Shown one piece after another: positions 2,921-39,400 of a stretch of 64,000 nt of DNA. The first letter of the stretch is position 1. Every line of letters begins with the position of its first letter. The stretch comes from Patescibacteria group bacterium (GTDB lineage Bacteria > Patescibacteriota > Patescibacteriia > JACRDY01). The translations under genes were made by a program, and so were the position numbers. Location of the stretch: contig JBAZFH010000003.1 in the NCBI GenBank assembly GCA_041653535.1, positions 66,771 through 130,770 on the forward strand, given 5' to 3'. The notes under the pieces are model-generated. The model was not told the origin of the DNA. It did no database searches and saw nothing but the letters and a program-made list of their open reading frames with translations.

Positions 2921-2989
2921 AGAGACTGGGTATGTAGTATACGGTATACGGTATACAGGAACTTAGTCTATTTCCTATATACTGTATAC

Positions 2990-4039
2990 TTACCCCTGCA
3001 TACTTTCCTTAGCGGCTTTTTTGAGAGCATTAATTATCTCAGTAATATCGCCATCAAGCATCTTGTCGATCCCGTGCCAGCTCTCTTTGATGCGATGATC
3101 AGTGATTCTGTCCTGAGGAAAGTTGTAAGTACGGATTTTTTCACTACGATCACCAGTACCGATTTGGTTTTTGCGAGTGGCGGCTAGCTTTTTTTGTTTC
3201 TCTTCTTCTCGGGCGGCGAGTAGGCGAGAGCGCAGTACTTGCATGGCTTTTTCCCTGTTTTGTAGCTGACTGCGTTCATCTTGGCAGGAAACCACTAACC
3301 CGGTAGGTATATGAGTGATGCGGACCGCTGAATAAGTGGTGTTAACGCTTTGACCGCCGTGACCGCCGGCACAAAAAGTATCGATACGTAAATCCTTTTG
3401 ATTTATTTCGACGTCAATTTCTTCGGCTTCTGGCATTACGGCTACGGTTGCAGCCGAGGTATGAATACGACCACTTTTTTCAGTTTCTGGCACACGTTGA
3501 ACGCGGTGAACACCGCTTTCATATTTGAGATTGCCATAAACATTTTTGCCGTTTACTTCAAAAATTACTTCTTTATATCCGCCAATACCAATACGGCTAG
3601 CAGAAACGATCTTGGTTTTCCAAGCGTTTTTTTCAGCATAACGGCTGTACATACGAAAAAGATCAGCGGCAAAGAGAGCTGATTCGTCACCGCCCGTACC
3701 GGCACGAATTTCTATAATGATGTTTTTTTTATCCAACGGGTCGGCGGGATTGAGCAGTTCAGTTATTTGTGAATTAATCAATTTTTTTCTTTCCTGCAAT
3801 TCAAAAAGGTCAGCCTGAGCCAGTTCGCTCATTTCGCTGTCGCCGCTTTTTATCAAATTTTCATTTTCGATAATCTCCCTATCTATTCCTTCTAGCTCGG
3901 TAATTTTGCCAACGACCTCTTTGAGTTCGTTGTATTTTTGGGAAATTTTTTTCATTTCTTCACGGTTATTGGCGATCGACGGATTTTGCAACTGCTGTTC
4001 TATTTCAGAATATTGGTTTTTAGCTTCTTGTATAGTCAT
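2990..4039 (-). CDS. prfA: Peptide chain release factor 1
   Basis: GGQ motif ([12 protein letters not shown]). PET tripeptide (PxT-type, RF1-like rather than the SPF of RF2) in [14 protein letters not shown]. Confidence 0.9.
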
Positions 4040-5822: not shown

Positions 5823-7496
5823 ATGAAAAAAAGAAATAAGGTTATTTTAATTATCATTGCCGTTTTGGTTGTTGTTGCTGTTGTTTATTTTGGTTTTCTT
5901 AAAAAAGCACCAATGACCGAGTATGTTACGGCTAAGGTAGAAAAAGGAAATCTGGTACAGACCGTGTCGGCTACCGGCTCGGTGAAAAGCACTGAAACAA
6001 TTGATTTAAATTTTGCGGCAACCGGTCGAATAGTATTTTTGCCGGTTAAGGTTGGCGACAAGGTGGCTGCCGGGCAAGCTTTAGCGCGACTCGATTCTTC
6101 TGATTTGTCCAGTCAGCTGCGACAGGCTCAAGCTAGCCTAGCTTCAGCGCAAGCGAATTTAAATAAACTGGTGGCCGGCGCTACAGTCGAAGACGTGAAT
6201 GTCACTTCGCAGCAGGTAGATTCGGCTCGCGTGGCTTATCTGGCTGCTTTGGTTGATCTGGAAAACGCTAAGAAAGATAAGGATAAAAATTTGGAAGCAC
6301 TGCGCGCTACCGCCGTTAGCGATTTAAACAATTATTTATTCAAGGCTAAGGCAGCGATGGACACGGTTTATAACACCATAAATGATAATGACGCCAAAGA
6401 TACTTTTAGTGATAAAAATTCTCAGTTAAAAATTGATCTGGAATTACAGCGGGTAGCTGCTAATCAGGCCGTTGCTGACGCTGAGCCGTATGTTTTGCAA
6501 GCAAGTAGCCTTGGCACTATTGTTGCCGCGGAAAACGCTCTGACCAAAGAATTTTATGCACTTAATCAGGTTAATAATGCTTTAGACTTAACTTTTAATG
6601 CGTTATTAAACACACCGACTAGTTCGACTTTTACAACAACCGAACTTGATACCCTGAAAACCAGCGTTCGTTCCGATCAAACAATAATTGCTACTGGCAT
6701 TACTACAATCGGGACGGACAAGTCTAATCTGCAAACCAAAGAAAATTATTATAATAATCAGATTGATTCAGCTCAGTCATTGGCAGATAAAGCTAAAACC
6801 GCCCTGGACTTAGCCGAAGCCCAGCTGCTTTTCAAAAAAGCGCCAACTCGTTCGGAGGATATAGAATATCAACATTCGGTGGTAAAACAAGCCGAAGCCC
6901 AGGTCGGGTCTATTTCTAGCAGAATTACAGATCGTATTATTACCGCCCCAGTTGACGGTATTATTACGGCGGTTAATAACGCTGTTGGCGAAACCGCTGG
7001 TGCTAGCGCTGGATCGGTGATAGTTATGTTGCCCAACAATCCTTACTATATTGAGGTTGATATTTCTGAAGCTGACATTGCTAAACTAAAATTGGGCAAT
7101 AAAGCTACTTACACTCTTGATTCTTATGGTAGTGATGTGAAATTTAGCGGGCAGATATTAGCTATTGATCCCGCCGAGACGGTAATTTCGGGCGTGGTTT
7201 ATTATCGGGTTAAAGTTGACCTAGGACAGTCTGATAAAGAAATTAAATCTGGTATGACCGCTAATATTGATATAGTGGCAGCAGAAAAAAATGATGTTTT
7301 ATATATCCCGCAACGCGCGGTAAAAAATAAAGACGGCAAAAAAGTGGTTGAGGTGATGATCGATAAAACTAAGAATGAGGTTGTCGAAAAGGTTGTTGAG
7401 ATCGGATTAAAGGCAGACGATGGTTTGATCGAAATCGTTTCGGGGTTAAATCAAGCTGAAGAAATTGTGGTTTACGTAAAAAATGCCAGCAAATAA
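5823..7496 (+). CDS. Efflux periplasmic adaptor (HlyD/MacA family) with an unusually long coiled-coil insert
   Basis: N-terminal TM segment. Biotinyl-lipoyl-like motif (VSATGSVKS...GRIVFLPVKVGDKV). Long alpha-helical middle region. C-terminal beta-barrel motifs (YIPQRAV). Confidence 0.7.
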   Translation: MKKRNKVILIIIAVLVVVAVVYFGFLKKAPMTEYVTAKVEKGNLVQTVSATGSVKSTETIDLNFAATGRIVFLPVKVGDKVAAGQALARLDSSDLSSQLRQAQASLASAQANLNKLVAGATVEDVNVTSQQVDSARVAYLAALVDLENAKKDKDKNLEALRATAVSDLNNYLFKAKAAMDTVYNTINDNDAKDTFSDKNSQLKIDLELQRVAANQAVADAEPYVLQASSLGTIVAAENALTKEFYALNQVNNALDLTFNALLNTPTSSTFTTTELDTLKTSVRSDQTIIATGITTIGTDKSNLQTKENYYNNQIDSAQSLADKAKTALDLAEAQLLFKKAPTRSEDIEYQHSVVKQAEAQVGSISSRITDRIITAPVDGIITAVNNAVGETAGASAGSVIVMLPNNPYYIEVDISEADIAKLKLGNKATYTLDSYGSDVKFSGQILAIDPAETVISGVVYYRVKVDLGQSDKEIKSGMTANIDIVAAEKNDVLYIPQRAVKNKDGKKVVEVMIDKTKNEVVEKVVEIGLKADDGLIEIVSGLNQAEEIVVYVKNASK

Positions 7497-10741: not shown

Positions 10742-10823
10742 GAAGTAGTGGATACTAACTGGTAGGCAACAAATAGTAAGTAGCGAATCGCAGCCTTGAA
10801 TGGTTGTTTTTTAGTTTGTTTTT

Positions 10824-10869
10824 TGACCAGATTCAGGCTTGCTAAAACCCTATAATTAGCAGTCTTGAC
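10824..10869 (+). repeat. Distal copy of a 46-56 bp promoter-like direct repeat (gtttgttttttgaccagatt[c/t]aggcttgctaaaa[c/t]cctataattagcagtcttgac). It carries only the left CIRCE half-site.
   Basis: Near-identical to 10996-11050 (2 mismatches over the core). Contains TTGACC, TATAAT and TTAGCAGTC. Confidence 0.6.
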
Positions 10870-10995
10870 CCCGCCCCTCTCAGACACGGTTTGGTTTTTT
10901 TGAGAGTAGGTGGTAGAAGCGGCTTCGCCTTTGGTCGGTGGTTATCAAAATCTTTCACGCTTCAAAGAGGCGGGGCGAGATGTGGTTCTAACCTG

Positions 10996-11050
10996 GTTTG
11001 TTTTTTGACCAGATTTAGGCTTGCTAAAATCCTATAATTAGCAGTCTTGA
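10996..11050 (+). repeat. Proximal copy of the promoter-like direct repeat, immediately upstream of hrcA
   Basis: Direct repeat of 10824-10869. Confidence 0.6.
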
Positions 11051-11064
11051 CACGTGAGTGCTAA
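11038..11064 (+). promoter_or_regulatory. CIRCE operator (HrcA binding site), TTAGCAGTC-N9-GAGTGCTAA, overlapping a TATAAT -10 hexamer (11033-11038)
   Basis: Matches the CIRCE consensus TTAGCACTC-N9-GAGTGCTAA with one mismatch. Sits directly in front of hrcA. Confidence 0.8.
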
Positions 11065-11786: not shown

Positions 11787-12302
11787 ATGGATGAAGATAA
11801 AAAAGTTAAAGAGGACCTAGATGATCAGGTTCAAGCCGAAGAAACTCAGGATGACGGAGTCGGTGCTGCCGAAGTTGATTTGGTCTTAGACTACAAAAAT
11901 AAATGGCTGCGGGCCGTGGCCGACTATCAGAATCTAAAAAAAGACACAATCAAGGAAAAAGAGGATTGGATCAAATTTGCCAATGCTGGACTTGTACTAG
12001 AATTAATCCCAATTCTTAACAATTTCAAAGAAGCAACCAAACATATTCCGGTTGATCAGCAAAAACTAGATTGGGTAGTAGGAATTTTTCATATTAAAAA
12101 GCAGCTGGAAGATGTCCTGAAAAATATCGGTATTGAAGATATGAAAACGGTTGGTGAAAAGTTTAATCCAGAGTTTCACGAAGCGGTTAGTCAGAGAGAA
12201 GAAAAAGGAGTCGACCCAGATCAGGTGATTGAAGAAGTACGTCCTGGATACACGATGCACGGTAAGGTGATAGAAGCGGCGAAGGTGGTGGTGAGTAAAT
12301 AG
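11787..12302 (+). CDS. grpE: Nucleotide exchange factor GrpE
   Basis: Acidic N-terminus. DYQNLKKDTIKEKE coiled-coil. Heat-shock operon context. Confidence 0.85.
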   Translation: MDEDKKVKEDLDDQVQAEETQDDGVGAAEVDLVLDYKNKWLRAVADYQNLKKDTIKEKEDWIKFANAGLVLELIPILNNFKEATKHIPVDQQKLDWVVGIFHIKKQLEDVLKNIGIEDMKTVGEKFNPEFHEAVSQREEKGVDPDQVIEEVRPGYTMHGKVIEAAKVVVSK

Positions 12303-12360
12303 GAGGATAGGAGGATAGGAGGATAATTTTTTTCTTAACATCCTAACCTTATAACCTCCT
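12300..12360 (+). repeat. Tandem 8-mer (GGAGGATA)x3 beginning at the grpE stop codon, followed by a partially complementary pyrimidine arm (atcctaaccttataacctcct). TAG occurs in all three frames.
   Basis: taggaggataggaggataggaggata read directly. AGGAGG/CCTCCT 6-bp perfect stem. Confidence 0.7.
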
Positions 12361-12431
12361 GACATTTTAATAAATATAAATAAACCACCTACCGTGATTT
12401 TGCCACGGAGGTGAATAAGGAGAATAACAAT

Positions 12432-12854: not shown

Positions 12855-12938
12855 TTTTCTCCAGACTGTCCGCCCCTTATTCTTTAGAGAGGGGGGCGGT
12901 AAGTGTGGAGAAAAAAAGTGGTGCTTTATAGGCACCAC
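12855..12938. terminator. Compound hairpin region between the convergent hsp20 and antisense small ORF
   Basis: Outer stem ttttctccagac / gtgtggagaaaa. Inner stem ccgcccc / gggggcgg. Separate perfect 7-bp hairpin gtggtgc-tttatag-gcaccac. Confidence 0.5.
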
Positions 12939-13189
12939 TCGGCGATTGATTGATCAGCAAGGGTACGACTTTGCTCCAGCCCATCGACGACTTCTCTGAC
13001 GGTATTAGCTTGTTTGATAGAATCAATAGCTCCACGAGGCAGGCATATTTCGCCGCAATGTTCTATTGCCGCTTGCAGGTCTTGCCGATTTTTGCCGTTT
13101 AGCACTTCCACCAAAGAATCGTCCAAAGAAAATTTACCAATTCCCAGGAAACGTAATGACTTAGCAATCAGCCTTTCGCATTCTTTCAT
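12926..13189 (-). CDS. Hypothetical 87-aa protein encoded antisense within the heat-shock locus
   Basis: ATG preceded by a strong G-rich Shine-Dalgarno (aagggggggggaaacgATG). Balanced amino-acid composition. No recognisable family. Confidence 0.4.
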   Translation of the reverse strand: MKECERLIAKSLRFLGIGKFSLDDSLVEVLNGKNRQDLQAAIEHCGEICLPRGAIDSIKQANTVREVVDGLEQSRTLADQSIAEWCL

Positions 13190-13240
13190 CGTTTCCCCCC
13201 CCTTCTGTCAATGTTAATTTGTCTAAGTAAATTATACTAA

Positions 13241-15205
<1,965 letters not shown>

Positions 15206-15236
15206 TATTTAGGTCTTAGTATATGGTATATAGGGC

Positions 15237-15273: not shown

Positions 15274-15621
15274 ATGGATTACGCGACAAAATATCTGGGG
15301 AAAGTGGTGACGATCAAAATGGATCGGCCGATCGGTACCGAGCACCCCAAACATCCGGGTTTGATTTATCCGATCAACTACGGCTTTGTGCCGGGCAATT
15401 TTTCTCCTGATGGCGAAGAGACGGATGCTTATATTTTGGGTATTACTGAGCCGCTGACAGAGTTTACTGGTGTTTGTATAGCGGTCATCCACCGCACCAA
15501 CGACGCTGACGACAAACTAATCGTCGTGCCAGAGGGCACCAGCTTTACCGACGAACAAATAAAAGAATTAACATATTTTCAAGAAAAGTATTATCAGTCG
15601 GAGATAATTAGGAGCTGGTAG
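15274..15621 (+). CDS. Short, divergent inorganic-pyrophosphatase-like protein, about 115 aa, with a degenerate active site
   Basis: YPINYGFVPGNFSPDGEETDAYILG and GVCIAVIHRTNDADDKLIVVPEG align to family I pyrophosphatase motifs YPxNYGFIP...DGDPLDVLV and R(P/V)IGV..MxDExGxDxKIIAV. The Asp cluster is altered. Confidence 0.5.
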   Translation: MDYATKYLGKVVTIKMDRPIGTEHPKHPGLIYPINYGFVPGNFSPDGEETDAYILGITEPLTEFTGVCIAVIHRTNDADDKLIVVPEGTSFTDEQIKELTYFQEKYYQSEIIRSW

Positions 15622-15678
15622 TTGGTAGTTGGGGATTAGAAAATTTTCTAACCACTAACCACTAACGACTAACCACTA
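15617..15678 (+). repeat. Tandem 7-mers (GGTAGTT)x2 spanning the stop codon, then (CTAACCA)-type repeats x4. TAG/TAA occur in all frames.
   Basis: ggtagttggtagttgggg...ctaaccactaaccactaacgactaaccacta. Confidence 0.7.
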
Positions 15679-15975: not shown

Positions 15976-15980
15976 GAAAG

Positions 15981-16066
15981 CAGGAGGATATGAGGGTAAG
16001 AGGATAGGAAATTTCCTAACCTCCTAACCTCCTAACCTCCTAACCTCCTAACCTCCTAACCTCCTA
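15981..16066 (+). repeat. Purine-rich AGGAGGATA-type arm, then (CCTAACCT)x6 perfect tandem 8-mer ending 3 nt before the dnaJ ATG
   Basis: cctaacct repeated six times. TAA falls in all three frames. CCTCCT mimics the 16S anti-SD. Confidence 0.75.
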
Positions 16067-16068
16067 TC

Positions 16069-18813: not shown

Positions 18814-19002
18814 TTCCAGTCTCCTTGCAGGCACCGCCTGCTGTTGTTACACGGCACCGCCGTGGTAAGGTGATGGTCTAGTCTTATCAGGATGTTGATT
18901 TTTTGTCAATGTTTTTAGTAACGGTATTTAGAACAAATTGGCATTATCTTCAGAGATTGGGCACTAGGCACTAGACATTAATTATGCTAATATTTTACTG
19001 CT

Positions 19003-20607
19003 ATGGCAGTTAGTCTCTATCGTAAATATAGGCCGCAGACTTTTGCCGATGTGGTCGGTCAAAACCATGTCAAAGTCACGCTGCAAAACGAAGTCAAGCA
19101 GGGCAATCTAGCCCATGCTTATTTGTTTTCTGGTCCGCGCGGTATTGGCAAAACGTCAATCGCGAGAATTTTGGCCAAAGCCGTGAATTGTATTGATCGT
19201 AAAAACGGCGATGAGCCGTGTGACAAATGCGAGGCTTGCGAAGAAGTAAAAAACGGCAACTGTTTGGACGTGATCGAAATCGATGCCGCGTCTCACACCG
19301 GTGTTGATAATGTCCGAGAAAATATTATCGAAAACGCTAGGTTCAACCCCAGTCGCTGGAAATATAAAGTTTTTATTATCGACGAAGTCCACATGCTTTC
19401 GCTGTCGGCTTTTAACGCGCTGCTCAAAATAATGGAAGAGCCTCCGGCGCACGTTATTTTTATTTTGTGTACTACCGAAATCCACAAAATACCGGCGACG
19501 ATTATTTCTCGCTGTCAGCGTTTTGATTTCAAAAAAGTTGTGCTGGGTGATATTGTCAACCACCTTAGCTTTATTGCCAAGAAAGAGGGGGTTAGTTGCG
19601 ATAAAGAAGTACTGATGGCAATCACTCGCCATTCGGAAGGATATTTGCGCGACGCTGTCGGACTGCTCGGGCAAATACTTTCACTTGGTGAAAAAAAAAT
19701 AACGCTGGAACAAGCCGAGCTAGTAATCCCGCGATCTAATTTTATTTTAGTTTCCGAGCTAGTTGATTATCTGGTGGCGAAAGACACAGCTCGGGCGTTG
19801 CAGTTAATAAACCGCCTAGCTAACGAAGGAGTGAATTTGGTGCAGTTTACTATTGACCTGGTAGAATTTTTGCGCAAAATATTACTGGTCAAAATATCGG
19901 GTAAACTAGAAGAGTTTGCTCTGGAGTTTGAAGCTGACGAAGAAAAAAAGATTATCGCGCTACTGGATAAACTTGATTTAAAAAAAATCGTTTTATTTAT
20001 AGATACTTTTGTTGATCGGTTGTCAGCAGTCAAGCAAAGCGCTATCACGCAGCTGCCGCTAGAAATGGCAGTGGTTGAACTTTGTGGCGAGAGCACGTAT
20101 GCGTCAGCGACATTGGTTAAAGAAATGGTTCATAAAAAAGATGATAATGTTAAGCCGGCTGGCGGGGGCAAAGAAGATAGGTCAGCGACAGTTGTAAATA
20201 ATGATCCGGAGTCGCAACCGGAAGTTGAAGAAAAAAAGAAAGTGACAAAGAGTAGTGGAGTGCTGAAGATAGAAGATGTATCCAAACAGTGGAATGAAAT
20301 AATCACTAAAATCAGTGAAGACTATCATTCTTTAGCTTTGACATTAAAAGTCAGTAAACCGTTAGAAGTTGATAATAATGTAGTCAAAATAGGTTTTAAA
20401 TATAAGTTTCATCAGGAAAGAATAGCTGATAACAAGAACAAATTGACACTTGAGAATATTTTGAGTAAACTACTGGGCGTTGATTTGCTGGTGGAACCGG
20501 TGTTTAGTGATGACATAGATATTGAGACGCCGGCGGTTTCATCTGCTCCCAGTATTGACGTTGCTTCTGGTGTGGCGGAAATGTTTGGTGGGAAAGTGGT
20601 AGGGTAG
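19003..20607 (+). CDS. dnaX: DNA polymerase III subunit gamma/tau
   Basis: AAA+ clamp-loader motifs (YRPQTF, GPRGIGKTS, DEVHML, SRCQRFDF) and a Cys-cluster zinc module. Confidence 0.85.
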   Translation: MAVSLYRKYRPQTFADVVGQNHVKVTLQNEVKQGNLAHAYLFSGPRGIGKTSIARILAKAVNCIDRKNGDEPCDKCEACEEVKNGNCLDVIEIDAASHTGVDNVRENIIENARFNPSRWKYKVFIIDEVHMLSLSAFNALLKIMEEPPAHVIFILCTTEIHKIPATIISRCQRFDFKKVVLGDIVNHLSFIAKKEGVSCDKEVLMAITRHSEGYLRDAVGLLGQILSLGEKKITLEQAELVIPRSNFILVSELVDYLVAKDTARALQLINRLANEGVNLVQFTIDLVEFLRKILLVKISGKLEEFALEFEADEEKKIIALLDKLDLKKIVLFIDTFVDRLSAVKQSAITQLPLEMAVVELCGESTYASATLVKEMVHKKDDNVKPAGGGKEDRSATVVNNDPESQPEVEEKKKVTKSSGVLKIEDVSKQWNEIITKISEDYHSLALTLKVSKPLEVDNNVVKIGFKYKFHQERIADNKNKLTLENILSKLLGVDLLVEPVFSDDIDIETPAVSSAPSIDVASGVAEMFGGKVVG

Positions 20608-20690
20608 CAGGAGACAGGAGACAGGAGACAGGGTCTCTTATTACTCGTGTATTTTTTTATCCTGTATCCAGTATCCTGCATCCTGTATAC
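20608..20690 (+). repeat. (CAGGAGA)x3 tandem heptamer directly after the dnaX TAG, then a pyrimidine arm with (ATCCTGT)-type repeats
   Basis: gcaggagacaggagacaggagacaggg...atcctgtatccagtatcctgcatcctgtatac. Confidence 0.65.
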
Positions 20691-20700
20691 TATTTAATAT

Positions 20701-20774
20701 TCGGGGATCGTCTAATGGTAGGACGCCAGGTTCTGGCCCTGGTAATTGGGGTTCGACTCCCTGTCCCCGAGCCA
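20701..20774 (+). tRNA. tRNA-Gln (anticodon CUG)
   Basis: Manual fold: acceptor tcgggga/tccccga, D-arm gtct-aatggta-ggac, anticodon stem ccagg/cctgg with loop ttCTGgc, T-loop ttcgact, encoded CCA. Confidence 0.8.
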
Positions 20775-20818
20775 ATTAAATAGCAGCTAGCGGCTAGTAG
20801 TTAGTATATAGGAAATAG
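20754..20818 (+). repeat. 65-bp direct repeat, copy A (last 21 nt of tRNA-Gln plus 44 nt downstream). att-like.
   Basis: Identical to 20920-20984. Confidence 0.7.
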
Positions 20819-20919: not shown

Positions 20920-20984
20920 CGACTCCCTGTCCCCGAGCCAATTAAATAGCAGCTAGCGGCTAGTAGTTAGTATATAGGAAATAG
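20920..20984 (+). repeat. 65-bp direct repeat, copy B, separated from copy A by a 101-bp GC-rich spacer
   Basis: cgactccctgtccccgagccaattaaatagcagctagcggctagtagttagtatataggaaatag present twice. Confidence 0.7.
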
Positions 20985-29082: not shown

Positions 29083-30693
29083 ATGATTAAGCGCTTACTA
29101 AGCGGTGAGTCTAAAACTATTACTTCGGCGGCAATAATCATTGGCGCCGCTTCTTTGGTTTCGCGCCTGCTTGGTGTTTTGCGGGACAGAGTGCTGGCTG
29201 GAGAGTTCGGCGCGGGAGAAACTTTGGATATATATTATGCTGCCTTTCGTATTCCTGATTTGGTCTATAACCTTTTGATTCTGGGTGCGCTGTCAGCCGG
29301 GTTTATTCCGGTGTTTATTCGTTATTTTAAAAAATCTGAAGACGAAGGTTGGCGATTAGCCGCCGCGGTTTTAAATGTTGTGATTATCGGAGTGGCAATT
29401 ATTTCCGCGGTTTTATTTGTTTTTACGCCTTGGTTGGTATCGCTGCTGGCTCCGGGTTTTTCCGCTGCGGCACAAGCATCTACCGTTACAATGACAAGAA
29501 TAATGTTTTTATCGCCCTTATTTTTGGGTATTAGTGCGGTTTGGGGCGGAATACTGCAATCGCAAAAGAAATTTTTTGTTTATTCGCTGGCGCCGATTTT
29601 TTACAACGTCGGCATTATGATTGGCGCGCTGTTTTTTGTCACTCCGTTCGGGATCGACGCTCTTGCCTGGGGTGTAGTACTTGGCGCTTTTTTGCATATG
29701 ATTGTGCAACTGCCGTCGATTTTCGGTTGCGGTTTTCGTTATCGTCCGATTCTGTCACTGCGTCATGCCGGTGTGCGGGAAATAATAGTGATGATGGTGC
29801 CGCGGGTGCTTGGTCTGGCTGTATCGCAGGTTAATCTTTTTGTCGTTAATATTATTGCTTCAATGCTAGCCGCTGGGTCAATCGCTGTTTTTAATCTGGC
29901 TAATAACCTACAGTCTTTTCCTCTAGGGATATTTGGGGTTTCTTTTGCCATTGCTGCTTTTCCGACATTGTCGGCGGCAGTAGCGGGGGAGAGTAAGGAG
30001 GAATTTGTCAAAAGTTTTTCGGTAACAGCGCGACAGATTTTGTTTTTTATCATCCCGCTTTCGGCTTTGTTTTTGGTTTTGCGCGCCCAGATTGTTCGTG
30101 CAGTACTCGGTGCCGGTTCTTTCGATTGGGAAGACACGATTTTGACTGCTGATGCTTTAGCGTTTTTTAGCGTCAGTCTTTTTGCTCAAGGCTTGATACC
30201 ATTGCTAGTTAGAGGATTTTTTGCTTGGAGTAACACTATGATCCCGCTTATTGCTGGGCTAATTGGCGCCATGGTTAATATCGCTCTGGCTTGGGTGTTG
30301 GCGGCAGATTATGGCGTAGCGGGATTAGCTTTAGCTTTTTCGGTTTCGTCAATTATTCAGGTAATTATTCTTTGGCTGGCGTTACGGCATAAAACCAACG
30401 GTCTTGACGAAGTAAATATTATTTTTGCCGTGGTAAAAATTTCTCTTGCTACACTGACAATGAGTTTTACAACCCAGTATTTGAAATATGTTATCGAGCC
30501 TTATACCGGCACGGAAACCTTTATCGGTATTTTTTCTCAAGGCTTGCTTGCCGGACTGGGAGGAATACTTGTTTTTATTTTAGTCAGTTTATTTTTGCGT
30601 TCGGAGGAAATGTTGGTTTTTGCCGCGTCTTTCAAAAGACGTTTTTTACGCAAAGAGGCGGTAGAAAAGGTGGAAGAGGAGATAGAAAGCTAG
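29083..30693 (+). CDS. murJ: Lipid II flippase MurJ (MviN)
   Basis: N-terminal motifs LGVLRDRVLAGEFGAGETLDIYYAAFRIPD. Polytopic membrane protein. Confidence 0.85.
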   Translation: MIKRLLSGESKTITSAAIIIGAASLVSRLLGVLRDRVLAGEFGAGETLDIYYAAFRIPDLVYNLLILGALSAGFIPVFIRYFKKSEDEGWRLAAAVLNVVIIGVAIISAVLFVFTPWLVSLLAPGFSAAAQASTVTMTRIMFLSPLFLGISAVWGGILQSQKKFFVYSLAPIFYNVGIMIGALFFVTPFGIDALAWGVVLGAFLHMIVQLPSIFGCGFRYRPILSLRHAGVREIIVMMVPRVLGLAVSQVNLFVVNIIASMLAAGSIAVFNLANNLQSFPLGIFGVSFAIAAFPTLSAAVAGESKEEFVKSFSVTARQILFFIIPLSALFLVLRAQIVRAVLGAGSFDWEDTILTADALAFFSVSLFAQGLIPLLVRGFFAWSNTMIPLIAGLIGAMVNIALAWVLAADYGVAGLALAFSVSSIIQVIILWLALRHKTNGLDEVNIIFAVVKISLATLTMSFTTQYLKYVIEPYTGTETFIGIFSQGLLAGLGGILVFILVSLFLRSEEMLVFAASFKRRFLRKEAVEKVEEEIES

Positions 30694-30783
30694 GAAGTGG
30701 TAGTTGGTAGATGGTAGATGGGGATAATAATTACGAATTAAGGATCAGCGGGTGAAGAAATTAGAAATTGGAAATTAGAAATG
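30691..30783 (+). repeat. GGTAGTT/GGTAGAT tandem repeats starting at the murJ stop, plus (GAAATTAGAAATTG) tandem repeat
   Basis: taggaagtggtagttggtagatggtagatgggg...gaaattagaaattggaaattagaaatg. TAG in all three frames. Confidence 0.7.
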
Positions 30784-31268: not shown

Positions 31269-31368
31269 TTTGTTAAAGCATTGAAAAAGAGGGAGCAATA
31301 AGGTAGAATGGTAGCAAATCGGGATTAGCAGCTAGTCACTAGTTACTAGCTGCTAGTTACTATTTTTT

Positions 31369-33132
31369 ATGAATAACATCCGAAATTTTTGTATTATCGC
31401 GCATATTGACCACGGTAAGTCAACTCTGGCTGACCGTCTTTTGGAAATCACTGGAACGGTCTCAATGCGGGAAATGAAAGATCAAATACTTGATCAGATG
31501 GATCTGGAGCAAGAGCGTGGTATCACTATCAAACTGCAGCCGGTCCGAATGGACTATCAGGGCTATATTTTAAATTTGATCGATACTCCTGGGCACGTGG
31601 ACTTTAGCTACGAAGTGTCGCGCTCCCTGGCCGCTGTCGAGGGAGCGATATTACTTGTAGATGCTACGCAAGGAATCCAGGCGCAAACTCTAGCCAACCT
31701 CTATATGGCGCTCGAACAAAATCTGGTGATTATTCCGGCGATCAACAAAATTGATTTGCCGGCTGCCGATCCAGAGCGGGTAACAAAAGAGATTGTTAAC
31801 TTGATTGGTTGTAAATCAGAGGAGGTAATCAAGGTTTCGGCTAAAACCGGCGCTGGCGTTACCGAACTTTTAGCCGCGGTGATAAAAGATGTGCCGCCAC
31901 CGACTATTGTGGAAGATAAAGCGTTGCAAGCTTTGATTTTTGATTCCAAGTTTGACGAATATCGCGGCGTAGTGGCTGATATACGTCTCGTTTCCGGAGA
32001 GATTAAGCGCGGTGACAAGGCGCATTTCTTGGCTACTGGAGCGATTAGCGAAGTTTTGGAAGTTGGCGTACTGCGACCAAAGCTGGTGACTAGAGATAAA
32101 CTGCTAGCCGGAGAAATCGGTTATGTGGTAACAGGATTAAAAGAAGTTGCCGAATGTCGCGTCGGTGACACGATTGGTTTTGGCGACAGCAAACCGCTTC
32201 CCGGATATAAAGAAGTAAAGCCGATGGTTTTTGCCGGAATATTTTGTAAAGAAGGTAGCGAATATCAGCAGCTGCGTGAAGGTATAGAAAAACTAAAGTT
32301 AAACGACGCGGCGCTGACTTTTGAGCCGGAAAACTCACCGGCGCTAGGGTACGGTTTTCGCTGCGGTTTTCTTGGCATGTTACATCTGGATATTGTTCAT
32401 GAGCGTTTGCATCGCGAGTATGACCTTGATTTGGTTATTACTGTGCCGTCGGTAGCTTACAAAATTTTTAAAACTAATGGCGACGAGTCAACTATCAAAA
32501 GTCCGCAAGAAATGCCGGATCCGTCTTACCTCGATCACGTCGAAGAGCCGGTGATGAAAGTCGATGTGGTGACGCCAAAAGATTATCTAGGACCGATTAT
32601 GGAAGTCACTCAAGGTAAGCGCGGTATTTATATTAATACAGAGTTTTTGGATGAAAAGATAGCCGTGCTGCATTACGAAATGCCCCTAGCTTCACTAATT
32701 ATTGATTTTTACGATAAGCTCAAAAGCGTGTCACAAGGTTACGCTTCGTTAAACTACGACTATAAGGGTTACCAAAAAGCTGAAGTAAACAAAATGGATA
32801 TACTGGTTGCCGGTGACAAGATTGAGGCACTTTCAACCATAGTTTATCACGATGAAGCACACTCAGTTGGTAAAAAAATAGTAGCTGAGCTAAAAAACGT
32901 TTTACCGCGACAAATGTTTGAGGTGAAAATTCAGGCGGCGATTGGTAGCACGATAGTTGCTTCAGACAAGATTTCCGCTATGCGTAAAGACGTTACGGCC
33001 AAGCTCTATGGCGGTGATGTGACGCGTAAACGTAAGCTACTAGAAAAACAGAAAAAGGGTAAAAAGAAAATGAAAGCTATGGGTAAAGTAGATATTCCGT
33101 CCGAGGCTTTTATGGCGGTTTTGAAGAGATAG
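31369..33132 (+). CDS. lepA: Elongation factor 4 (LepA)
   Basis: NIRNFCIIAHIDHGKSTLADRLL G1 motif, DTPGHVDF, NKIDL and the LepA-specific C-terminus. Confidence 0.95.
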   Translation: MNNIRNFCIIAHIDHGKSTLADRLLEITGTVSMREMKDQILDQMDLEQERGITIKLQPVRMDYQGYILNLIDTPGHVDFSYEVSRSLAAVEGAILLVDATQGIQAQTLANLYMALEQNLVIIPAINKIDLPAADPERVTKEIVNLIGCKSEEVIKVSAKTGAGVTELLAAVIKDVPPPTIVEDKALQALIFDSKFDEYRGVVADIRLVSGEIKRGDKAHFLATGAISEVLEVGVLRPKLVTRDKLLAGEIGYVVTGLKEVAECRVGDTIGFGDSKPLPGYKEVKPMVFAGIFCKEGSEYQQLREGIEKLKLNDAALTFEPENSPALGYGFRCGFLGMLHLDIVHERLHREYDLDLVITVPSVAYKIFKTNGDESTIKSPQEMPDPSYLDHVEEPVMKVDVVTPKDYLGPIMEVTQGKRGIYINTEFLDEKIAVLHYEMPLASLIIDFYDKLKSVSQGYASLNYDYKGYQKAEVNKMDILVAGDKIEALSTIVYHDEAHSVGKKIVAELKNVLPRQMFEVKIQAAIGSTIVASDKISAMRKDVTAKLYGGDVTRKRKLLEKQKKGKKKMKAMGKVDIPSEAFMAVLKR

Positions 33133-33165
33133 TTGGTAGGTGGTAGTTAGTAGTTGGTAGTTAGG
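33130..33165 (+). repeat. GGTAGTT-family tandem repeats starting at the lepA stop codon
   Basis: tagttggtaggtggtagttagtagttggtagttaggg. TAG in all frames. Confidence 0.7.
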
Positions 33166-33213
33166 GAAAAGAAAAAAGAGCCGCGGGTGGCAGCTCCTTT
33201 AAATTGTTGATGG

Positions 33214-33893: not shown

Positions 33894-34060
33894 TTTTATC
33901 TCATTTTTTCAAGCTTCTTACTTCACCTTATTATTATATTGTTTATTAGTCAAGAGATATGAAATTAAAAAGAAAAAAGATACAAAAGACGATTTGGATT
34001 ATAATTAATGTCTTAGTGGCGTTGTCAATGGTTTTGTGGACCGTGGCAATTGCGTTTTAA

Positions 34061-34141
34061 GAGGATAGGGAGTGTAGGAGAGTAGGAGGATAGGAGGGTA
34101 AATTAATGCATTTGTATTTTACCTATCCTCCTATCCTCCTA
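34061..34141 (+). repeat. Long near-perfect hairpin built from GGAGGATAGG-family repeats (about 20-bp stem, 15-nt loop) upstream of recJ
   Basis: taggaggataggagggtaaa / tttacctatcctcctatcctccta. Confidence 0.7.
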
Positions 34142-34153
34142 ATATCATAATTT

Positions 34154-35979: not shown

Positions 35980-36038
35980 CTCGTCTATTGCTTCAGAATA
36001 GAGATAAGAAGTAGGAAGTAAGAATAAGATGATTTAAA

Positions 36039-36455
36039 ATGCCTATGGATAAGCTAATCGTTTATACTGATGGTGGCGCTCGCGGTAATCCTGGTCCGGC
36101 AGGAATCGGCGTGGTTTTTTATAATAGCAAAAAAGAAATAGTAAAAAAGTTTGGTAAATATGTCGGTGATGATATGACTAATAATCAAGCCGAATATATA
36201 GCCGTGATAGAAGCGCTGGCAGCGGCTAAAGAACTGGGGGTTAAAGAGCTGGATTTTTTCTTGGATAGCGAATTGGTGGTCAAACAGTTAAATGGAGAAT
36301 ATAAAGTAAAAAATAAAGAATTAAGTTCACTGTTTGTTAAAATTTGGAACGCAACTCAAAGCTTTAGTAAGGTTAAATATCGTCATGTGCCCAGGGAAGA
36401 AAACAAGGAAGCGGATCGGCTGGTAAACGACGCGATTGACAGGGAAAAAAGATAG
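36039..36455 (+). CDS. rnhA: Ribonuclease HI
   Basis: RNase H fold motifs (VYTDGGARGNPGPAGIG, NNQAEYIAVIEAL, DSELVVKQ). Confidence 0.8.
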   Translation: MPMDKLIVYTDGGARGNPGPAGIGVVFYNSKKEIVKKFGKYVGDDMTNNQAEYIAVIEALAAAKELGVKELDFFLDSELVVKQLNGEYKVKNKELSSLFVKIWNATQSFSKVKYRHVPREENKEADRLVNDAIDREKR

Positions 36456-36498
36456 CCTAAAAGGCTATTTTTTGTTATAATAAAGCAAAACTAAAAAC

Positions 36499-39400
36499 AT
36501 GGAAAATGTTAACAGAAAAAAACACAATTTTCGGCTGTTTGTGATTGTTTTTATTTTTTTAAATCTTTCGATATCTTTGCTTTATATAAAAAGCGTTTCG
36601 GCTTTGCAGTATCATGGGACGAATATTACTGCCAACGAATTCTGGTCAGCGGCACAGTCGCCTCATATTGTAACGAAAGCGATAACAGTGTCTGGCGGCG
36701 CCATCCTCACGATTGAAGCCGGTGCCACTGTTTTATTTAACAGCGGTGCTTCTTTGACTATTGATAGCGCCAAACTTATTGCCATAGGCGCATCTGGTCA
36801 GGAGATTACGTTTTCCGCAAACAGCGTGTTACCAACTCCGGGAAGCTGGAACGGTATATATTTGCGGTCCGGGACTTATACGCTAGATTCTTCAATTCTT
36901 GAGCGTGTAATTATCGAATATGCCACAGACGGGTTGTCGATGGAAAATTATTTTTATGTTATTAACGCCCACGAAATACGCGATTCAGAAGTGAGAAACA
37001 ACAAAAATAACGGCATTAGAATTTTAGCGGGTTATTTTTGGAATAGCGATACTTTAAACCAAGCCAAGGTTAGTAATGTTTATGTTCATGATAACGGCGA
37101 TAACGGGATTTACGTTTATGCATCAGGATCGAGTTTTTTATTTAAGAGAGGAAAAATTGACGGAATAATTGAAAACAGTATTATTTCCAATAATGCAAAA
37201 AACGGCATTTATCTTAACGACGGACAGTGCAGTTCCGATGTTAAACTAAATATTACCGGTAATGTAATCGAAGACAATAATCAAGGAAATAATAGTCCCG
37301 GCACGGTTGCCGGTGTTTATCAGACAGAGAGTCGTTGTACTTCCGAAGAAAATAGCGAAATAACTATTAGTGGTAATACCATCCAAAACAACAATAGTTT
37401 AGCCATGCAAATTCATCCGCGGACTATTTTAGTTAATAATAATTTTTTGCAAAACTACACCAAAGCAGTCGATGCTTCTCAAAACGTTGTTAAAGTGATA
37501 AAAGGAACTATTTACACTAAAAATTATTCTAGCGTAAATCCCGGATCGGTTTATACCTGGAGTGGCAGCGGAGGGCATGGTAAGGAAGATGTTGTTTATT
37601 TTGTGAGCGGTTTGGTGACTATTATTAACGACAATACTTTAAATTTTGTCGAAGCGCCGATGATAAAGCTGGGTAACGGCGCTGGTTTTTTTGTTAATTC
37701 CGCAAAAATATACGCCGTAGCTCCGGCCGTTTCTGGAAAAGAAACCATTTTTACCTCAATCAATGATTCGGCGGCAGATTACGGAGGAGACACGCGTTGG
37801 GTTATTAGTTCTTCCGCCGCCCCGGCAAAAGGCGATTGGGGCTCAATCACTTTGTCGACTACCAGTTATGGTATCGATTCTTCCGTTATTGATCACGCTA
37901 TTATAAAATACGGCACTAACGGCGTGGTAATTGATAATTCTTCTTTTGTTTCCAACTCTCATCAGGTTTTAAATTCCATTATCGGTGATAACAGCCAGAA
38001 CGGGATAACTATCAAATGCAATTATTATTGGAATAGCGCGGTAACAAATGCGGCGGTAATAAAGGGCAATAAGATAAGTAATAACGACAGTAACGGTATT
38101 TATACCTATGGCTATGGTGCCGATGGCGGTCGCACTGCCATTATCAACGCTACTATTCAAGATAATAATATCGTCAATAGCGGCGGCAGCGGCATTCAGA
38201 TTGATGACGGTGGATGCAATACCGCTACCAAGCTTAATATTAAAGGTAATATTATTGAAGGTAGTAATAATAAAAATGGCATCGCTAATGCTAAAAATTA
38301 TGCGGCGATTTGGCAAGCTTCAACTCGTTGTAACCAAAATTACAGCGAAACAATCGTTGAAGGCAATACTATCCGCGGTAATAATAGTTTGGTCATGCAA
38401 ATTCATCCGCGGACCGTTTTAAACGGCAACACCATACAGGATAATAATCCGAGCGCTTCCGAGATTTTTTCTCGTAATGTGGTAAAAATATTACCGGGCG
38501 GGGTAATAAAAACCACAGAGTCGGCGTTGAATTCTTATTGGTCCGGCAACGGCGACAATTCGTCGACGAATAATGTTGTTTATTTGGTGAGCGGCAATAT
38601 TGAGTTTACAGGAGGTCATAATTTATATATAAATAACGCCGCGACAGTAAAATTTGTAAAAACTTTTAAATTGTCACTGTATAATAACTCCAAAATTTCT
38701 GCTTTCGGACTTGAAGCGGACAGTCAAAAAAACGTTTTCACTTCCGTAAATGATAATAGTAACAGCGCTTCCGGAGATACTACTTGGGCAGTTGATTCCT
38801 CGACTTTTCCGGTTTCGGGCGATTGGAATACCATATTTTTAGGTTTTTGTAACACCGGTGATTGTTCGGTTGTCAGTGATGCCATCGTTCGTTATGCCAC
38901 TAACGGAATAACCTTAGACAGCGATAATACTCACAAGGTTTATCGCTCAGAAATTAGCAACTGTTTGGGAGTGGGAATTTTGGTGAACGCCTCTCCGACA
39001 GGAAGTATTTCCGGTATTTCTAATCGTGCGAACATAGATTCGTGTAAAATTCATAATAACAATGGTAGCGGTATAAGCGTGACTGTAAGCGGTTCAACCA
39101 AGGTAAGCAGCCTAGTTGCCGATTATACCAACAATGAAATTTATAATAACGCGGCCGACGGCATAAAAGTAAGACCGACTGATAATGGTTCTTTTTTAAG
39201 TCTTAATTTAATTAACAATAATATTCATGATAATTCTGCCAATGGTGTCAATTATAATAATACAGGCAGTGTTTCTAACAATTACGTAAACATTACTTCT
39301 TCAAAAATTATTAATAACATCGGTCACGGAGTATACGTCATTAGCAGTAAAATGAATATTACCGGCAGTGATCTTTATGGTAACCACGGAGCGGAAATAT

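Follow-up and report, generated by a model that had tools for sequence, protein, structure and literature searches.

Cataloguing of intergenic arrays of seven-nucleotide repeats (heptamers) began in cyanobacteria in about 1990 and later reached Xanthomonas and the Beggiatoaceae. These repeats have had no mechanism, and the PF05635 proteins associated with intervening sequences (IVSs) have been named since the 1990s without an assigned function. IVSs that lack an open reading frame (ORF) also occur in bacteria other than Coxiella. In Coxiella burnetii, the 23S rRNA IVS contains a PF05635-family ORF (S23p), is closed by terminal inverted repeats that pair into a 28-bp stem, and carries two or three tandem copies of the heptamer GACAGAT in a number that varies between strains; RNase III cleaves this stem where the first repeat begins (PMC4990558). 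Insertions in the rRNA genes of the Candidate Phyla Radiation (CPR) contain 23S_rRNA_IVP ORFs, include short ones at classical IVS sites, and comprise probable IVSs of the RNase III type (PMC11270868). Here we describe short tandem arrays and array-built hairpins in a window (the whole stretch of DNA analysed) of 64,000 nt from a Patescibacteria (CPR) genome, where they occupy defined positions between genes with a consistent polarity. The same grammar is present in relatives, in which such arrays bracket PF05635 genes. With moderate confidence, we interpret the hairpins of the window as ORF-less IVS-type array hairpins that evolved by slippage and are probably processed as double-stranded RNA.

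The window contains, by Pfam assignment, the gene order hrcA-grpE-hsp20-dnaK-(pyrophosphatase-like)-DUF3467-dnaJ, followed by dnaX, murJ, lepA, and recJ; the products of grpE and hsp20 are GrpE and HSP20, and RecJ domains were found in the recJ-like gene by a domain search. The nearest relatives of its DnaJ among GTDB species genomes and JGI metagenomes are encoded by Patescibacteria metagenome-assembled genomes at 64-67% identity, with no closer strain in these collections. An earlier note on this DNA had listed purine-rich repeats behind several stop codons together with pyrimidine-rich partners. All of these repeats were recovered in the sequence with Tandem Repeats Finder (TRF), whose thresholds miss degenerate arms, and they occur far above chance. 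Allowing at most one mismatch, GGTAGNTGGTAG has 9 matches in the window (0.29 expected), and GGAGGATAGG has 14 (2.05 expected). Like long simple-sequence repeats (SSRs), the arrays are above-chance tandem repeats of a 5-11-nt unit; they are present in 2.4-6.6 copies and reach a density of 3.9 per intergenic kb. An Rfam 15 scan of the window returned only two tRNAs at the gathering score, no rRNA, and no curated RNA family at the arrays.

Seven spacers of the window form long imperfect hairpins of 21-30 pairs with loops of 4-30 nt (z -2.8 to -4.85 against dinucleotide shuffles; Table 1), as in the stems of roughly 20-30 bp that terminal inverted repeats form in IVSs. When paired arrays lie between co-directional genes, a G-rich, nearly C-free 5' arm begins at or on the stop codon upstream, and its 3' partner, C-rich and nearly G-free, ends a few bases ahead of the next start codon or tRNA. 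Because the paired arms span the spacer, the whole spacer folds as one long, periodically mismatched hairpin. All seven sit between protein genes or 5' of tRNA-Gln rather than in rRNA helices.

The individual hairpins are variations on this plan. In the grpE-hsp20 spacer (hairpin 1), the (ATAGGAGG)x3.4 arm includes the grpE stop TAG (12300-12302), the 3' arm ACATCCTAACCTTATAACCTCCTG extends to 12361, and the next start is at least 50 nt away. The 5' arm of hairpin 2 includes the stop TAG of the pyrophosphatase-like gene (15619-15621); the palindrome TTAGAAAATTTTCTAA forms its centre, and its 3' arm stops 3 nt 5' of the DUF3467 ATG (15682). At the site originally flagged, the DUF3467-dnaJ spacer (hairpin 3), a degenerate 5' arm (GGAGGATA TGAGGGTA AGAGGATA GG) lies 6 nt past the DUF3467 stop and, across the loop AAATTT, faces a perfect (TCCTAACC)x6.6 arm about twice its length that ends 2 nt 5' of the dnaJ ATG (16069). 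In hairpin 4, the CAGGAGA array directly past the dnaX stop (20605-20607) pairs with the TATCCTG array at one mismatch per unit; there is no stop codon in either arm, and the hairpin ends 10 nt 5' of tRNA-Gln (20701). Hairpin 5 follows a 33-aa ORF ending at 34060, combines a GGAGGATA-type 5' arm with a near-perfect 3' arm (CCTATCCTCCTATCCTCC), and ends 8-12 nt 5' of the recJ-like ATG (34154).

The earlier note had read these repeats as a genome-specific intergenic grammar rather than chance, and the comparison with relatives bears this out more broadly than it was stated, as the grammar is lineage-wide and uses other units in other genomes. The comparison set comprised the window and 79 loci that were collected through dnaJ and therefore form a biased sample; genes of the relatives were taken as the longest non-overlapping ORFs, a crude procedure by which some starts are misplaced and stop-free arrays are absorbed into ORFs. 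In this set, in which 11.5% of the sequence is intergenic, period 7 is dominant among the intergenic arrays (92 of period 7, 39 of period 8, 22 of period 9, and 11 of period 6) and the arrays are concentrated in non-coding DNA, both of which are features of long SSRs. Closer relatives had 1.56 arrays per intergenic kb, compared with 0.55 in distant ones (p=0.004). Arrays are placed from -13 to +12 nt relative to stop codons or 0-16 nt upstream of starts. Adjacent arrays are inverted copies of one another in 6/17 cases, compared with 7% of random pairs, and a significant complementary partner was found for 35/102 arrays between co-directional genes versus 3/24 at convergent or divergent junctions. 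In two collinear loci of ∼80% nucleotide identity (L013 and L068), arrays occupy the same gene boundaries but differ in unit sequence, so the position of an array is conserved while its unit turns over. Copy number as well as unit differs between relatives, and copy number also varies for the tandem heptamers in IVS stems. A further relative (L003) has an inverted pair, TAATTTT/TTAAAAA, directly 5' of a tRNA gene whose start resembles that of the window tRNA-Gln.

The link to IVS elements comes from one of these relatives. In L020, the spacer between DUF3467 and dnaJ, which is the flagged spacer of the window, contains a 126-aa ORF that matches PF05635, the family of 23S rRNA intervening-sequence proteins (E 2e-34). 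Its left arm, (GAGTAAT/GTGTAAC)x5, begins on the DUF3467 stop, its right arm, (TTACACA)x4.6, ends 4 nt 5' of the dnaJ ATG, and variant units in the two arms are mirrored in register. We found the same arrangement among close homologues of this gene in Patescibacteria, including records labelled as Falkowbacteria, Magasanikbacteria, Kuenenbacteria, and Moraniibacteria: complementary heptamer arrays bracket the PF05635 ORF in 9/9 independent genes, with a left arm that starts from the upstream stop and a right arm that runs from the stop of the PF05635 ORF, usually to the next start. The mean duplex energy between the flanks of these nine genes was -33.2 kcal/mol compared with -11.0 kcal/mol for 28 neighbouring genes from the same loci, without overlap between the two groups (p=4e-6).

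As a second source of PF05635 genes, 72,556 plasmids were searched with tblastn, which gave 27 records with a homologue, of which 24 are from cyanobacteria. Of 14 plasmid homologues examined, ∼11 lie between complementary arrays whose variant units mirror each other in register; the other three have direct arrays on both sides, a one-sided array, and no array, respectively. The set is biased by its selection for similarity to one Patescibacterial query, and several of its Nostoc cases have a conserved module in common and do not count as independent. The median flank duplex of the 14 was -24.7 kcal/mol versus -12.8 kcal/mol for 58 other genes of two Nostoc loci (p=9e-6). The arms consist of CAGGAGT/CTCCTGA, AGTAGGG/TCCCTAC, or GGGAAAA/CCCTTTT in Nostoc, TAGGGTG in Calothrix, GGAGATAAGGAGATAGG / CTCCTTACCTCCTAATCTCC in Picosynechococcus (very like the arms in the window), and GACAGAG/GACGGAG in Azospirillum; a Geminocystis plasmid gene also has complementary arrays. 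Arrays that flank PF05635 genes usually contain ∼4-5 units. In Nostoc and in L003, ORF-less hairpins lie near ORF-carrying ones of the same unit family. By a criterion of polarity that was derived in this analysis and is not a published one, 16/21 PF05635 elements have more G than C in the 5' flank and more C than G in the 3' flank (p=1e-6), and 6/7 window hairpins clearly show the same polarity relative to their flanking genes. The unit of hairpin 7, ACTAGTTACT, is common to the arms that flank PF05635 genes in two of the loci (L169 and L171).

Based on their architecture, their polarity, the one shared site, and this partial sharing of units, the window hairpins appear to be kin to the PF05635/IVS type of element. 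In the mechanism that we propose, the arms would pair after transcription into a double-stranded stem that, by analogy with the Coxiella IVS, could be a substrate for RNase III-type processing. Cleavage would then cut the polycistronic mRNA at gene boundaries, the stem might keep the stop and start codons adjacent, or both, and the arrays would expand and turn over through replication slippage.

Several observations weigh against this interpretation. No PF05635 gene was found in the window by tblastn, and the short loops there lack the ORF of a classical IVS. The main units of the window (GGAGGATA and GGTAGTT) differ from the GTAAY-type arms around PF05635 genes in Patescibacteria, and the array at 31332 is the only one to share a unit with such arms. 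An RNase III signature motif was detected neither in the window nor in any locus, a result that is uninformative given the small amount of sequence per genome. In the earlier note, a loop and a pyrimidine arm came after every repeat; this applies to most arrays between co-directional genes, but the arrays that follow murJ and lepA lack a partner (fold z +0.6 and +0.3, respectively; duplex z +0.4 and +0.7 for the murJ-junction arrays at 30698 and 30756, and +1.8 for the lepA array). Folding of the antisense strand compared with the sense strand gave mixed results across the seven hairpins, and at the flagged hairpin 3 the antisense strand folds far better (-44.8 compared with -29.7 for sense). 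The advantage of sense over antisense is slight everywhere and no greater in array spacers than in array-free ones. Finally, a purely mutational origin, by slippage plus template switching from arm to arm, would give much the same sequence picture.

This last alternative is a serious rival, to which we assign a real though clearly lesser probability. It holds that 7-nt slippage repeats accumulate where they are harmless, that their arms become complementary by quasi-palindrome template switching, that neither function nor kinship with IVSs is involved, and that PF05635 genes just tend to land in spacers of this kind. An excess of heptamers among the intergenic SSRs of many bacteria has already been ascribed to slippage (Mrazek 2007, as cited in PMC4679880; PMC4692102), and the fast turnover of units at fixed positions, the perfect dnaJ-side array beside its degenerate arm, and the lack of an RNA-specific folding asymmetry are all consistent with this origin; tiny spacers alone would make arrays abut stops and starts. 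However, unit families are shared between separate loci, the orientation of G-rich 5' and C-rich 3' arms relative to transcription is consistent, paired arrays are enriched between co-directional genes, and chance landing fails to explain the pairing of arms across PF05635 genes with variants mirrored in register. Arrays also persist across a clade and in one of the most compact types of bacterial genome, where useless DNA is unexpected.

A broader proposal, which we put forward tentatively and regard as rather doubtful, is that heptamer-array hairpins and PF05635 (an Avd-like, pentameric four-helix-bundle protein) form one element that spans Patescibacteria, cyanobacteria, Azospirillum, and the rRNA IVS of Coxiella. 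Under this proposal, the window hairpins and the short tandemly repeated repetitive (STRR) sequences of cyanobacteria would be its ORF-less derivatives, the protein might recognise or maintain the arrays at about one subunit per heptamer, and the stems could act as RNase III "punctuation" of operons. In the literature that we covered, which was incomplete and does not prove novelty, we found no link between heptamer arrays and PF05635 outside the Coxiella IVS, and within the same incomplete coverage no account of heptanucleotide arrays in CPR genomes. If the link between arrays and PF05635 holds genome-wide, the repeat puzzle and the protein puzzle become testable together; if it is true, it would account for assembly breaks in CPR bins and for orphan hairpins at gene boundaries that could be mis-annotated as terminators. 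If it fails, the window is still a clean example of slippage-driven evolution of spacers.

A related possibility is that the arrays serve as protein-binding sites in which each heptamer would bind one unit of a protein, the candidates being the PF05635 pentamer, cold-shock proteins, S1, and CsrA. The GGA-rich units of the window (GGAGGATA and CAGGAGA) resemble CsrA sites, and the preferred units are genome-specific. The ∼4-5 units around PF05635 genes are close to the homopentameric state of the protein, as cited in PMC4990558; CspB binds heptamers, and S1 and Csr have been named as candidates for such repeats (PMC4679880). Against this, units are very diverse, both inside a single genome and from one close relative to another, copy numbers in the window run from 2.4 to 6.6, and the window has no gene for any of the candidate proteins. 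We consider such binding improbable.

The position of the arrays at stop codons had been read in the earlier note as a set of frame-independent translational backstops with terminator-hairpin potential. The position itself is clear. For grpE, the pyrophosphatase-like gene, and lepA, the first repeat unit contains the stop codon, and the arrays past dnaX and murJ begin 0 and 4 nt after the stop, respectively; in the window and relatives, 26/51 near-stop arrays overlap or abut the stop (distance of 0 or less). Six of the seven window genes that are followed by an array end in TAG, compared with 17/59 genes overall. TAG or TAA is present in all three frames only in window arrays of about three or more copies (those at 12299, 30698, 33130, 15648, and 16014), whereas the array at 15616 has stops in two frames, the one at 15984 in one frame, and the arrays of CAGGAGA/TATCCTG, CCTATCCT, and GTATACG, which form the strongest hairpins, have none on the sense strand. 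Among 60 after-stop arrays of the window and relatives, 27 have a stop in all three frames, compared with 22.7 +/- 2.9 after shuffling of units (P=0.09) and with 19 of the same arrays in the antisense control. A stop in at least one frame is slightly enriched (54/60 versus 49.6 +/- 2.0, P=0.03).

The all-frame stops are mostly a matter of arithmetic, arising from a period that 3 does not divide and from arrays that include the gene's own stop codon. They are a by-product: arrays are either seeded on the stop codon or tolerated only from there on. Since duplications from the stop onward leave the protein unchanged, arrays can grow there; MacGregor came to the same conclusion on growth at the stop codon for the TAACTGA repeats, for which the same all-frame property was reported (PMC4679880). 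"Stops in all frames" will appear automatically with any repeat period not divisible by 3, and this should serve as a warning. Selection for backstops against read-through or frameshifting, combined with terminator hairpins and mimicry of the anti-Shine-Dalgarno (SD) sequence by CCTCC, therefore appears highly improbable, even with the placement at stop codons and the slight one-frame enrichment in its favour.

The other two parts of this model did not hold up either. Terminator scans matched one array hairpin with a stem and a T-run (31323-31358, hairpin 7), and hairpins 1-6 were not among the matches; elsewhere in the window, other genes end in canonical GC-rich terminators, including one at 33174-33200, just past the lepA array, that belongs to a gene on the opposite strand. 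The six hairpins that lack a T-run are thus not intrinsic terminators, and hairpin 7 alone fits that description. The absence of an SD sequence before dnaJ, which the earlier note had pointed out, is real, but in these genomes an SD sequence precedes only ∼15% of genes, and the scarcity is lineage-wide rather than particular to dnaJ. SD-like motifs were found 5' of 2/34 array-preceded genes and 47/303 others (p=0.2, with crudely assigned starts). CCTCC is restricted to one unit family and the 16S rRNA lies outside the window, so the proposed anti-SD mimicry is not supported.

Translational control is another reading of hairpins that bridge a stop and a start. The stem might promote re-initiation or unmask the start, which would couple neighbouring genes tightly in a genome poor in SD sequences, and a mismatched stem could possibly act as a heat-shock thermosensor. 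In several spacers the foot of the stem is no more than ∼10 nt from the stop and from the start, paired arrays favour co-directional junctions, three hairpins fall in the grpE-hsp20-dnaK-dnaJ cluster, and, at -20 to -37 kcal/mol, hairpins that end 2-12 nt 5' of an AUG without an SD sequence should prevent initiation de novo. However, hairpin 1 ends at least 50 nt short of the following start, hairpin 4 is followed by a tRNA rather than an ORF, hairpins also flank recJ, lepA, and prmC, which are not heat-shock genes, and the pattern is indistinguishable from mere tolerance of self-folding inserts. The apparent heat-shock bias is an artefact of having fetched the loci via dnaJ; we set the thermometer aside on this ground and because hairpins flank unrelated genes. 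Overall we regard translational control as unlikely, and both translational coupling and protein-binding arrays have less support than a mutational origin.

Table 1. Positions of tandem arrays and array hairpins in the window (fold energies in kcal/mol)
Feature	Position	Strand	Details
(ATAGGAGG)x3.4	12299-12325	+	TRF, 100%; on grpE stop
(TGGTAGT)x2.4	15616-15632	+	TRF
(CTAACCA)x4.4	15648-15678	+	TRF
Degenerate GGAGGATA-type arm, x2.9	15984-16006	+	TRF, 80%
(TCCTAACC)x6.6	16014-16066	+	TRF, 100%
(CAGGAGA)x3.6	20608-20632	+	TRF; missed by earlier note
(TATCCTG)x4.4	20658-20688	+	TRF; missed by earlier note
GTATACG/GTATACC array	2937-2956	-	TRF; missed by earlier note
(CTAGTTA)x4.4	31332-31362	+	TRF; missed by earlier note
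(TGGTAGA)x3.4, GGTAG-type	30698-30721	+	TRF; past murJ (stop 30691-30693), convergent junction
(AGAAATT)x3.9	30756-30782	+	TRF; unpaired, same convergent junction as murJ array; missed by earlier note
(TAGTTGG)x4.7	33130-33162	+	TRF; first unit is lepA stop codon, convergent junction
GGAGGATA-type array	34069-34100	+	TRF; complement at 34122-34141
(TAAGAAG)x3.7	36005-36029	+	TRF; 9 nt 5' of RNase H-like gene (36039-36455); missed by earlier note
(GGCACTA)x2.1	18960-18974	+	TRF; short, divergent spacer 5' of dnaX; missed by earlier note
Hairpin 1, grpE-hsp20 spacer	12299..12361	+	fold -21.4, z -2.9
Hairpin 2, pyrophosphatase-like gene/DUF3467 spacer	15616..15678	+	fold -21.7, z -3.4
Hairpin 3, DUF3467-dnaJ spacer (flagged site)	15982..16066	+	fold -29.7, z -2.8
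Hairpin 4, dnaX-tRNA-Gln spacer	20603..20691	+	fold -36.8, z -4.85
Hairpin 5, before recJ-like gene	34059..34146	+	fold -36.5, z -4.5
Hairpin 6, prfA (2990-4039)/prmC (2054-2920) spacer, GTATACG/GTATACC units	2944..2989	-	fold -19.5, z -3.3
Hairpin 7, (CTAGTTA)x4.4 stem then TTTTTT, directly 5' of lepA ATG (31369)	31305..31366	+	z -4.5

Additional array-like sequences were observed in the window. Degenerate heptamer runs containing TAG follow the dnaK stop (15206-15222, TATTTAG GTCTTAG TATATGG TATATAG) and the second macB-like gene (10742-10790, GAAGTAG TGGATAC TAACTGG TAGGCAA), and these are likely decayed arrays. The 14-mer unit of the array at 30756-30782 also occurs inside the coding sequence of prmC on the minus strand (TTGGAAATTAGAAA x2.1 at 2733-2762), where this 7/14-nt periodic array is translated in frame as ISNLQFLIS. 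In one relative (L090), (CCTAGTC)n at 2778-2809 precedes one gene and its complement (TAGGGAC)n lies on the dnaJ stop (7083-7106), 4.3 kb away; the two may pair at long range around a whole operon. Two independently assembled Logan contigs from the strain of the window are identical to it in sequence, and both break within the (CCTAACCT) array of the dnaJ spacer. Close PF05635 homologues are mostly found on contigs of 0.5-3 kb, consistent with similar assembly breaks at their flanking arrays.

PF05635 genes were also seen in particular gene settings. In L169 (3971-4413) and L171 (3975-4430), a PF05635 gene with heptamer arms lies between the genes for the small and large subunits of a NiFe-hydrogenase, and L171 has a second cassette 1.7 kb downstream (6077-6518); the hupS-hupL spacer of cyanobacteria is known for repeat hairpins. 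PF05635 genes with arrays are present within CRISPR-cas operons on plasmids of Pseudanabaena (L175), Picosynechococcus (L182), and Anabaena sp. 90 (L183), in the cas6/cas4 gap, in the cas10/cmr3 gap, and adjoining cas4.

Other features of the window concern the neighbouring genes. A perfect 65-nt direct repeat (20754-20818 and 20920-20984) comprises the last 21 nt of tRNA-Gln and 44 nt downstream, includes CTAG-rich array-like sequence, and brackets a GC-rich insert of 101 nt; it looks either like an att-type duplication that an integration event left at the 3' end of the tRNA or like a partially duplicated tRNA. Upstream of hrcA, a 69-nt direct repeat of 88% identity (10801-10869 and 10983-11051) flanks a GC-rich inverted repeat (CCCCGCCCCTCT ... 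AGAGGCGGGGCG), and each copy contains TTAGCAGTCTTGAC, which may be a CIRCE-like half-site, as well as the promoter-like sequence TTGCTA-N17-TATAAT. The 416-nt hsp20-dnaK spacer (12855-13270) contains an 87-aa ORF on the opposite strand (12926-13189) with no Pfam match, the 3' end of which is overlapped by a terminator-like hairpin (12940-12916); L068 has an opposite-strand ORF inserted after dnaK that appears unrelated to it. The region 36039-41148 encodes an RNase H / RVT_3-domain protein (36039-36455) and then a 1549-aa beta-helix protein, and from 41245 onward there are genes for a type IV pilus (pilM, pilO).

Compared with described intergenic elements, the window hairpins resemble Rho-independent terminators and the palindromes of repetitive extragenic palindromic (REP) sequences and bacterial interspersed mosaic elements in being hairpins located 3' of genes; they differ in that their stems are built of repeats, are AT-richer and periodically mismatched, and in 6/7 cases lack a T-run. 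REP elements also have a conserved full-length consensus, as expected of miniature inverted-repeat transposable elements as well, whereas the window hairpins have none: whole elements do not align with each other even though units recur. The GGGAATC repeats of Xanthomonas and the GGGGAYT repeats of Nostoc occupy the same spacer across related species with variable length and sequence and are occasionally inverted (PMC4692102), as in our relatives, but they are G-quadruplex candidates with runs of three or four G, whereas the window units have at most GG, except for GGGG at some arm ends. The known units GGGAATC, GGGGATT, GACAGAT, and CAGGAGT are not present in the window.

The TAACTGA repeats of marine Beggiatoaceae (MacGregor 2015) are similar in that heptamers lie directly 5' of SD-less starts, carry stops in three frames in the forward orientation, and in some cases overlap the upstream stop. 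They consist of a single direct unit without a complementary arm, unlike the many units of the window, where TAACTGA has one near match, inside a gene (0.47 expected), and forms no dimers; the window is thus not part of that repeat network. The STRR sequences of cyanobacteria (Calothrix, Nostoc, and Anabaena) share with the window intergenic heptamers in several unit families that recur at many loci (PMC2408588, PMC4692102, PMC4679880) and some inverted pairs or hairpins, and in Nostoc plasmids heptamer arrays bracket PF05635 genes. They belong to another phylum and use other units, whereas the window also has 8-nt units and comes from a tiny, compact genome. Tandem dimers of STRR1-3 (the consensus units CCCCAGT, TTGGTCA, and CAACAGT of heterocystous cyanobacteria) were not found in the window in any rotation, and with these units absent and a Patescibacteria source, STRR sequences proper were ruled out.

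The closest likeness is to the 23S rRNA IVS (in Coxiella and Leptospira, and ORF-less in Salmonella), which has a long stem of terminal inverted repeats, tandem heptamers, and an optional PF05635 gene in the loop. The copies in the window differ in that they lie in mRNA spacers or before a tRNA, lack the ORF, and have arms composed almost wholly of 7-8-nt arrays. Their new aspect is best filed as IVS-type stems and heptamer arrays that occur, without an ORF, in the mRNA spacers of CPR bacteria. Relatives of the window genome share with the IVS the seating of PF05635 genes in array stems.

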